A DNA stretch of 64,000 nucleotides, taken from assembly GCA_964019425.1 (NCBI GenBank), contig OZ025786.1:1302001-1366000 (forward strand). The letters run 5' to 3'. The notes under the pieces are model-generated. The model searched no databases and had not been told where the DNA came from. It saw only the letters and a program-made list of their open reading frames with translations. This DNA is from Flectonema sp. DT1601. Lineage: Eukaryota. Both the position numbers and the translations under genes were made by a program. Position 1 is the first letter of the stretch. Each line of letters opens with the position of its first letter. Of this stretch, positions 17,569 through 19,700 are shown in pieces.

Positions 17569-19700
17569 TTAGTTATGGTTGGTTTGACTCAAAAGCAGGA
17601 AAGGTTCACAAGTCAACTGATGGATTTGCAAACCTCGACTTCCCGCAAACCATGTGCCTGCTTTCGTCGTACGCATGCCACATCCACAACAAAAGTATAT
17701 TCCAACGCAATTCAAGCAAACATTCCAATCACATGTTAAACTCTCACCTTTACAAGGGAGACGACATTCAAATATTTGTCCAAAGAAATAATTTGAATCA
17801 CATAAATCACAAAAAACTGGTTTATTAATGAGAACTATTTCAAGATCGTGACCTTGTGGGCAAGTGGTGGTTACATCTTTTTGTTCTAACTCGGTATGTA
17901 CTTTCATTGGAGAGAGCACCTTGCAGGATTTAGAATCTGTTTCATTGAGGATACTTTTCGATAAGAATCTACTCGTTATGTCCTTTTCGTTTAAAACAAA
18001 TAAAGGTAATATGATTTCTAAACCTCCTTCACGCAATTTATCAAAGAGTACCCCGGCTTCGTCAGGTAAGTTTTCACTCTCCACATCAGTAAAGCCAGAA
18101 CAGGTAACCAAATTAAACAGGCCATTGAGAATGACCTCAGTATACTCTATACACCAATCATTGATTACTGACCAATCGTATGGCCCTAGTATTGGGAAAA
18201 AGTGCTCAGATGGAACATTTGCATGGTGCCCGAGTATGATGAACCCCCTGACAAGTAGAAAAGTAGACCGCGCGTCGGGAGCGACAAAGTAAGCGGAGTC
18301 TTTTTGCTCATAAGGGTCCATACTTAGGAAGAAAAAACTAACACCCAATACATTTGATAAGGCTTGTATGGCTGCATGGTCTGCCCACACACCATCAAAA
18401 CCCATTCCAAGTGCATATTCGTCGTAATTACCGAGTACAAAGTTTTTATATTTATCACTATACTCTACTAACTCAGCACTGGTGAATTCACGCAGCGTCG
18501 CTGCATCAAAGAAGTAAAAGATTTGTTTCGATACTGCTTCAAAGAAACAATTACCAAAACGGTTCACGTCTTCAGGGTAAAGACCAACTTCTTCCATATA
18601 CCATATCGTGTGGTCAATTGTAAAGTAATCCACTTTTCCTTCTTGAACAATTGGTTCTTCTGGAATCAACACTACGGCTTTAGGCGGGTAAACAATAAAC
18701 TGTCTTTCTTTTGGAAAATGGTAAGAGTGAGGGTTGTTTAATTTACCAAAGACAACATGAACTAAAGAAAATAATCTCTTATATGTGGAATCGTAGGCTT
18801 TATAAAACTCATCGCAGAATTCACGAAAAGCAAATGCTACGTCTTGTTTCTTAAAACCTCTTTTCCACATTCTATAAAGTATAAATTCAAATTCAACAAA
18901 AAGATCAGGTAAATTATTACAAATCATTGCAGCTCTAAACATAGCACCTTTAACCACTCCTTTCGGTATAGACACCGGCATAGTTGAATTACTATGTACA
19001 TATTGCAAAGGGCGAAAAGACCAATCCTTTCGGCTTATAGATAACCTGATAAACTTTCTCTTTTCCTTTGTTTCAATTCTGATTCTTGCTCCCAAAAAGA
19101 CTACGTGGTCTTCACTAATCGTAGTGTCTTTGTAGTCCATCTTGTAGATGCTTGGGGGTGGAGGCTCATGCCCCCAGCAAAGGAAGTCATCAATATAACG
19201 CACCATAGTGCTATAAATCTTTGCTTTTGGAGGGGTTAACGTATCAATGTATTTACTCTCACACTGATAGCAATAAAGGTTTGCTATTAAAGGGGAAGCA
19301 TTACCACCCATTGGTATTCCTTTTGTTTGTCTATAACATTTTTTACTTCCGATCGGTTGAATTAAAGAATAATCAATACACATGTTGATATGTTCAATAA
19401 CTTGTTCAACGGTAAGGTTTTTCGTCTTGGGTGGTTTCGTTTCGGTAAAAAAATATTCACTTTTTCCTTGCGAATGACGCGTTAGGTACTTCAGTTTTTT
19501 GTAAGTAAAAGCTTCTTTCACAGCTGCCGCACATTGTTCTTTAAGATAGTCATGTGGTAAGTTGCTGTACATTGTAGTAAAATCAAAAGTTTTTGGTGGG
19601 GTGGATGCGCTATAAATTGGGTATTTCCTTTTAATAGTTGTAATAACGTCGTCGACAGAATCAACAATGAAATATCTACGTACACCTGTACGAGCAAACT
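17569..19700 (-). mobile_element. 5'-truncated Penelope-like reverse transcriptase fused to OTU and Cys-rich domains
   Basis: TFDFTTMYSNLPH, QTKGIPMGGNASPLIANLY, RYIDD, FLG, YVHSNSTMP (PLE RT and thumb); then GNCFFEAVSKQ...WADHAAIQALS...EHF (OTU) and CPQGH...CDLC...CDWNVCLNC. The first ~23 aa of the listed ORF are satellite read-through. Confidence 0.85.

Follow-up and report, generated by a model that had tools for sequence, protein, structure and literature searches.

The window analysed here, a 64,000-nucleotide stretch of a Flectonema sp. DT1601 contig (OZ025786.1), is pieced together from satellites and fragments of elements, with element-host read-through frames and with 28S rRNA fragments that mark it as eukaryotic. 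On its minus strand, a stop-to-stop frame of 751 aa (17569-19824) carries the reverse transcriptase (RT) and thumb of a Penelope-like element (PLE), an OTU domain and two Cys/His clusters, all in one uninterrupted frame running from 19704 to 17569. The element part opens at a Met (19702-19704); the 40 aa before it are satellite read-through and not element, because the junction Met is Ile in the family. The first-pass annotation had read this frame as a PLE RT joined to an OTU-like domain and a Cys-rich end, and the Pfam matches to OTU and RVT_1 within it agree, except that the Cys-rich end is not one unit but two clusters (aa 655-706 and 713-739). The features are as follows.

17569..19704, minus strand: remnant single ORF of a 5'-truncated, probably Chlamys-type PLE, 711 aa plus stop
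18757..19704, minus strand: RT palm and thumb (Pfam RVT_1; homologues are Naiad/Chlamys RTs)
18184..18606, minus strand: OTU cysteine-protease domain (Pfam, AF2 model, Foldseek, Atlas)
17863..18183, minus strand: linker of about 107 aa from the OTU to the zinc-binding tail (no Pfam match; read from the sequence)
17707..17862, minus strand: first Cys/His cluster, a C1/ZZ-like zinc finger as a lead only (weak phmmer, Atlas)
17608..17688, minus strand: terminal C2HC-type zinc finger (CxxC..H..C/H pattern)
17230..17568, minus strand: probable 3' UTR of about 340 nt (boundary from the duplicated flank)
17215..17243, minus strand: 3' junction in a C-rich tract (the tract recurs, without the element, at 60596-60610)
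19696..19710, minus strand: 5' truncation junction with an A-rich satellite, whose overlap makes the Met (Ile in the family)

The RT palm retains the motifs FDFTTMY, GIPMGG and YIDD (first Asp of YIDD at 19189-19191), and RVT_1 matched the frame at E 2.7e-5, which is under the Pfam cut-off. In the window RT, 88 aa lie between the Asp of motif A and the Gly of motif B, the position where an insertion-in-fingers domain would sit. The RT fingers and everything upstream of them are missing from the window copy. Pfam found no GIY-YIG match anywhere in the frame, in agreement with the initial statement that a C-terminal GIY-YIG is absent.

Twelve database proteins form the cluster that includes the window protein, with identities to the longest member (P0032) of 91-99.8%. 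RT/thumb and OTU are joined in one frame in seven of them (P0002 and P0031-P0036), which lie on different contigs, and the remaining members are OTU/tail pieces (2) or RT-only pieces (3). P0031 is apparently the gene call of the window itself; the six others, with identities of up to 99.8%, also keep RT and OTU in a single frame. The 5' starts vary among the 7 fusion copies and the C-terminus is common to all but one; judged by these sequences, the family is young and multi-copy, the varied starts and alike ends matching 5'-truncated retrocopies. The window ORF is 99.4% identical to aa 374-1084 of P0032, a protein that has 373 more aa on its upstream side and carries both the CxC and the DKA motif. 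The loss of the N-terminus, already noted in the first reading, is accordingly a 5' truncation at ~19704, where the element start is joined to the A-rich satellite. The window copy is unable to move on its own. A second element copy was not found in the 64-kb window, nor was an internal repeat in this truncated copy.

The 3' end of the element lies in a C tract at ~17230-17243, and the block downstream of it recurs at 60596-62026 with the same C tract and without the element. The upstream flank of this second block is different, so that the block does not qualify as a clean empty site. The frames of P0035, P0047 and P0048 run into poly-Pro at the 5' junction; that of the window copy does not. 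The Chlamys group often inserts in (C)n or (CA)n (PMC8557442). Among Chlamys features, 5'-truncated copies and a (C)n/(CA)n insertion bias were both found here in few cases, and the C-tract 3' junction and the poly-Pro junctions, few as they are, would be in line with the Chlamys (C)n bias. Folding of the 3' UTR gave nothing unusual (z -0.33) and no credible Rfam match; 7 hammerhead core matches in the window were at chance level and none lay inside the element. A search of viral contigs found no relative. The 28S fragments downstream raised the idea of 28S rDNA targeting, as by the PLE-X of spike moss, which was rejected: the junction lies in the C tract, ~80 bp from the clear rRNA match (by eye), and the same block sits element-free at 60596-62026. 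The duplicated block itself (15808-17229 and 60596-62026, 94% identical) contains rearranged 28S rRNA fragments, with a ~130 bp satellite flanking it, and looks like a mobile or amplified pseudo-rDNA unit.

A full-length relative was obtained from the sister family, P0037 (1428 aa), whose RT is 57-60% identical to that of the window family. Its order is N-terminal GIY-YIG, KR-rich block, CxC, RT, OTU-like domain and Cys-rich tail. Pfam matched the GIY-YIG of P0037 at E 0.0023, below the cut-off; across the sister family (P0037, P0044 and P0047) the values were 0.002-0.005 and the core carried no CxxC, and the Naiad zinc motifs (CCHH and CX2-5CxxC) were missing from the P0037 nuclease. GIY-YIG stood upstream of the RT in all full-length homologues where it was detected. 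The CxC and DK(A) motifs are present in P0032 (CKC..GH, IDKA) and in P0037 (CPC..GH, VDKA) and are lost from the window copy. Moreover, Naiad-type rows form a clade separate from the window family and P0037. Since P0037 carries an N-terminal Chlamys-type GIY-YIG, the nuclease is likely N-terminal and not absent, and the window family is likely Chlamys-type. The nuclease status, which the first reading had left open, is narrowed by the sister, although no member of the window family shows a GIY-YIG: even P0032 begins downstream of that region. The recovery of full-length copies proposed at that stage likewise succeeded for the sister, whereas the window's own family reaches only P0032. The records suggest that both OTU families and the Josephin-bearing P0062 and P0066 are in the same assembly.

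The OTU domain was detected by Pfam (PF02338, aa 424-495) at E 1.2e-6 with 29.5 bits against a cut-off of 23.3, and its best PDB match by sequence was OTUD1 (4bop). The AF2 model of the 145-aa domain, built from an alignment of 8 rows, had a pLDDT of 81.6, and the top Foldseek matches to it were OTUD1, OTUD3, DUBA and Otu2 (TM 0.68-0.77, E 7e-8 to 4e-6). Pfam and Foldseek both uphold the OTU-like domain that had been called from the letters alone. The four listed Atlas rows were all OTU clusters (scores 0.91-0.94), the top match (0.94) being a viral L-protein OTU cluster; no viral OTU transfer is claimed here, because the structure matches put cellular OTUD1/3/5 first. The predicted catalytic pair is Cys426 (18547-18549) and His541 (18202-18204), with the Cys preceding the His in the order of the OTU fold. 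Arg445, Trp480 and the gatekeeper Phe after His541 are retained, the gatekeeper pair being His-Phe in the window OTU and His-Tyr in P0037. As first annotated, Cys and His are present, and Phe (Phe423) occupies the usual Asp position before GNC.

The missing acidic residue at His+2, which is Phe in the window OTU and Met in P0037 where the canonical triad has Asp, Asn or Glu, is a bigger oddity than the Asp-to-Phe change. The latter matters less than feared, because the equivalent Asp in EAV PLP2 contributes by its backbone amide (PMC3968130). The solved viral OTU 11nq is likewise hydrophobic before GNC. TYMV PRO has neither a third catalytic residue nor a full oxyanion hole (PMC3968130). Mutation of the acidic residue of OTUs can leave activity intact, and in A20-type OTUs this residue is placed before the Cys (PMC7396840). 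Since A20-type and TYMV OTUs are also without the His+2 acid, the window OTU would stand outside the canonical-triad subtype, not outside the family. The OTU identity between the sister families is 24-25%, against 57-60% for the RT, and a Pfam OTU match was not found in P0037.

In the zinc-binding tail, the first Cys/His cluster gave a weak phmmer match to the C1 domain of PKC-alpha (E 0.14) and Atlas leads to C1_2/ZZ, every score being under 0.9. The tail of P0037 shows a similar Cys pattern as read by eye. The terminal CxxC..H..C/H pattern (C2HC/C2H2-type) was found in 17 non-USP families among 64 with tails of at least 100 aa.

To see what other relatives carry after the thumb, homologue searches and cluster look-ups, including the best 150 of 1367 matches of one search, were collected into 281 RT-matching proteins, 216 of which cover the RT core and form 152 families at 80% identity. 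Tails were labelled with Pfam and with profiles seeded from Pfam matches. In this set, with the best 150 of 1367 matches included, the tails comprised 23 USP, 12 Josephin, 3 OTU, 2 Ulp1, 25 long unlabelled and 87 short ones. The 112 of 152 families without a recognised protease show that the protease is dispensable. In the FastTree tree of the same families, one clade of 62 (support 100) has a protease after the thumb in 27 (11 USP, 12 Josephin, 3 OTU and 1 Ulp1), USP is carried by 12/53 families on the Naiad side, and Ulp1 by 1/37 of the other Chlamys-type families. Among 46 long tails scanned, the post-thumb enzyme domains were USP, Josephin, OTU and Ulp1, together with one PGA_cap match in P0253, whose RT match ends short of the thumb end. 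In metagenome DNA, 8/36 loci have RT and USP (6) or Josephin (2) in one ORF, one of the six USP loci being frameshifted inside USP, and in two further loci the RT is followed by Josephin or OTU in a broken frame. Such single-ORF fusions in DNA indicate that the fusions are not merely gene-model artefacts.

The window family and its sister lie among USP and Josephin carriers (16-row group, SH-aLRT 95-98). The second OTU lineage (P0113/P0291 and P0213) is placed away from them, and P0113/P0291 also carries DnaJ. For a focused tree, 42 rows were chosen and the long branch P0116 was dropped, leaving 41 rows for a quick PMSF tree. AU tests on the 41 rows, which were chosen after the trees had been seen and used labels from Pfam and profiles, rejected a single clade for OTU (p 6e-5), for Josephin (5e-6) and for the Chlamys-type USP carriers (0.004). 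A common origin of the window OTU with the OTU+DnaJ lineage is rejected by the AU test, and OTU-OTU BLAST between the two lineages gave no significant match (E 1.0). The 30 labelled rows need 7 changes, compared with a minimum of 3 and with 11-17 for shuffled labels. The RT trees hold neither published Chlamys/Naiad reference elements nor a canonical PLE outgroup, and gains and losses are inseparable in them because they are quick searches without that outgroup.

The active sites are largely kept across the protease families. The catalytic Cys is present in 22/23 USP rows, in 15/15 Josephin-type rows (3 of which were added by eye or as partial) and in 4/4 OTU rows, and the His with its following aromatic in 20/22 USP rows reaching it, 13/13 Josephin and 4/4 OTU rows. 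This His-aromatic motif is 477-fold enriched in Gly-Gly-cleaving proteases (PMC7391069). The second OTU lineage keeps both the Asp before GNC and an Asp/Asn at His+2, whereas the window OTU and its sister are without both. Gly-Gly occurs in 4/42 linkers between thumb and protease, and in neither P0032 nor P0037.

Several observations were made on individual relatives. Full-length Naiad-type elements with an intact C-terminal USP are P0080, P0091, P0124, P0125, P0133, P0138, P0140 and locus L010, and the P0014/P0091 cluster has 760 members. P0105-P0111 of Diplonema papillatum are USP-bearing Chlamys-type elements annotated as, or fused into, host gene models, and copies in this organism are named as a host 'ubiquitin carboxyl-terminal hydrolase', which is of concern for annotation. 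Loci L001 and L007 are related elements whose Josephin-like tails, read by eye, seem to be missing both catalytic residues, the Cys and the His. About 150 nt of GC-rich 3' UTR are conserved between the two (L001:1960-2200 and L007:1560-1800) and gave no match in Rfam, and L007 stands in a head-to-tail tandem with the GIY-YIG ORF of the next copy.

We propose an accessory role for the OTU: as a deubiquitinase borne in cis by the EN-RT protein, it would spare this protein from ubiquitin-driven degradation or edit ubiquitin at the nicked target, and we give this reading, drawn from sequence comparison, a probability of roughly 0.65. The full element, modelled on P0037, would consist of GIY-YIG, KR-rich block, CxC, RT, thumb, OTU and zinc fingers. 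It would nick C-rich tracts and copy its own RNA from the 3' end, so that truncation would take the nuclease first and spare the OTU. The OTU would then remove ubiquitin added by the host, either from the element protein or from factors at the site of insertion. There is a viral precedent in TYMV PRO, which protects its polymerase from degradation (PMC3968130), and by analogy the protease may shield the RT protein from proteasomal turnover. The first-pass annotation had suggested a ubiquitin-editing or self-processing module; the editing half gains from the copies that keep the fusion and from the other deubiquitinases in the slot, and the self-processing half loses from the rarity of Gly-Gly in the linkers.

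It is unlikely, in our estimation, that the OTU of the window lineage is a weakened or dead pseudo-enzyme whose sole role is to bind ubiquitin (on chromatin or at DNA breaks, for instance), or that it is decaying. Both sister families have lost the two usual acidic positions, their OTU domains share low identity and P0037 has no Pfam OTU match, as such a reading would predict; the low identity may fit relaxed constraint as well as an arms race. On the other hand, the Cys, the His, the gatekeeper aromatic, the Cys-loop Arg and the variable-loop aromatic have been kept at ~60% RT identity. Moreover, the tolerance that OTUs can show to mutation of the acidic position, the acid placed before the Cys in A20-type OTUs (PMC7396840) and perhaps the hydrophobic residue of 11nq speak against reading the two changes as loss of activity.

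We consider it quite improbable that the domain, whether or not it is also a deubiquitinase, is an autoprotease which cuts the element polyprotein to release the RT or zinc tail. The OTUs of tymoviruses and arteriviruses are precedents, TYMV PRO doing both jobs without a third residue (PMC3968130), and the window OTU is likewise without the Asp/Asn at His+2; in addition, the window protein has an LREGG stretch after the OTU. However, LREGG is missing from the sister tail (by eye), the rare linker Gly-Gly argues against a conserved self-cleavage site, and the slot is filled by four unrelated folds that share only ubiquitin/SUMO specificity. Finally, a piece of host gene fused by chance to one copy, or an artefact of gene calling, would suit a window which is a repeat mosaic with other element-host read-through frames, and some database relatives which are chimeric gene models (e.g. 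kinesin or TPR fusions), but is refuted by the uninterrupted DNA frame and by the same fusion in 6 other copies and the sister family; the first-pass annotation had named a lack of the fusion in other copies as grounds for refuting its PLE-OTU reading.

Beside the preferred reading of the OTU as an accessory deubiquitinase, a broader proposal, for and against which we find the odds about even, is that the window family belongs to a large, mostly uncatalogued PLE branch with a dedicated C-terminal slot, into which OTU (twice, independently), USP, Josephin and Ulp1 have been placed on at least seven occasions in all, and that removal of ubiquitin or SUMO is a recurring, selected function in retrotransposition, implying an unrecognised ubiquitin-based host defence against these elements. 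Chance could explain a single element with a single protease; four unrelated ubiquitin/SUMO proteases in one slot with active sites kept are the pattern expected if hosts attack via ubiquitin.

The closest known system is Chlamys-1/-4/-6_cBra of Chara braunii (Craig et al. 2021, PMC8557442), in which, as in the window family (for the nuclease, by extrapolation), an N-terminal-nuclease PLE carries a C-terminal cysteine protease of ubiquitin type followed by a Cys/His motif, with CxC, a DK motif and no hammerhead. Their protease is Josephin, whereas that of the window family is OTU. The words 'ubiquitin' and 'peptidase' are absent from the main text of PMC8557442, and 'OTU', 'UCH', 'peptidase' and 'ubiquitin' from its supplement, and the paper does not describe an exchange of protease families. 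The Josephin of these three Chara Chlamys families is the only slot protease found in print for PLEs, and in the open-access literature, Repbase not included, we found no description of OTU, USP or Ulp1 on PLEs. The repeated exchange of ubiquitin proteases in one PLE slot, and the presence of OTU, USP and Ulp1 on PLEs, therefore appear to be new.

Similar arrangements are known from more distant elements. Ginger1 and Helitron/Helentron carry OTU or Ulp1 as C-terminal alternatives on the transposition enzyme, and a role of the ubiquitin pathway in transposition has been proposed for them; these are DNA transposons with two protease alternatives, compared with four in PLEs (PMC2836005, PMC6431247). 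The Dualen non-LTR retroelement has a Josephin-like protease proposed to disrupt protein degradation, but with a non-LTR RT, other nucleases and Josephin only (cited in PMC8557442). Nairovirus L and TYMV PRO have an OTU in the same chain as the replicase, but belong to RNA viruses, and TYMV PRO also processes the polyprotein (PMC3968130). Being small and easily assayed, the PLE domains would allow the long-standing suggestion that OTU, Ulp1 and Josephin domains on transposons aid transposition to be tested directly.

Elsewhere in the window, 23190-34025 and 39724-43404 on the plus strand hold near-identical (98-99.7%) tandem or truncated copies of a non-LTR retrotransposon with zinc fingers, RT, zf-RVT and a restriction-like nuclease motif (by eye), two frames of which read through into an unrelated coiled-coil-like tail. 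On the minus strand, 1-6747 is taken up by a frame without introns that is longer than 2249 aa, includes several AAA modules and is presumably RNF213-like. Broken frames at 13055-14517 (plus strand), which have related pieces near 21437-22196 and 49471-52884, resemble the N-terminal region of what may be a DNA polymerase B of Polinton type (Endonuclease_7, E 0.0065).
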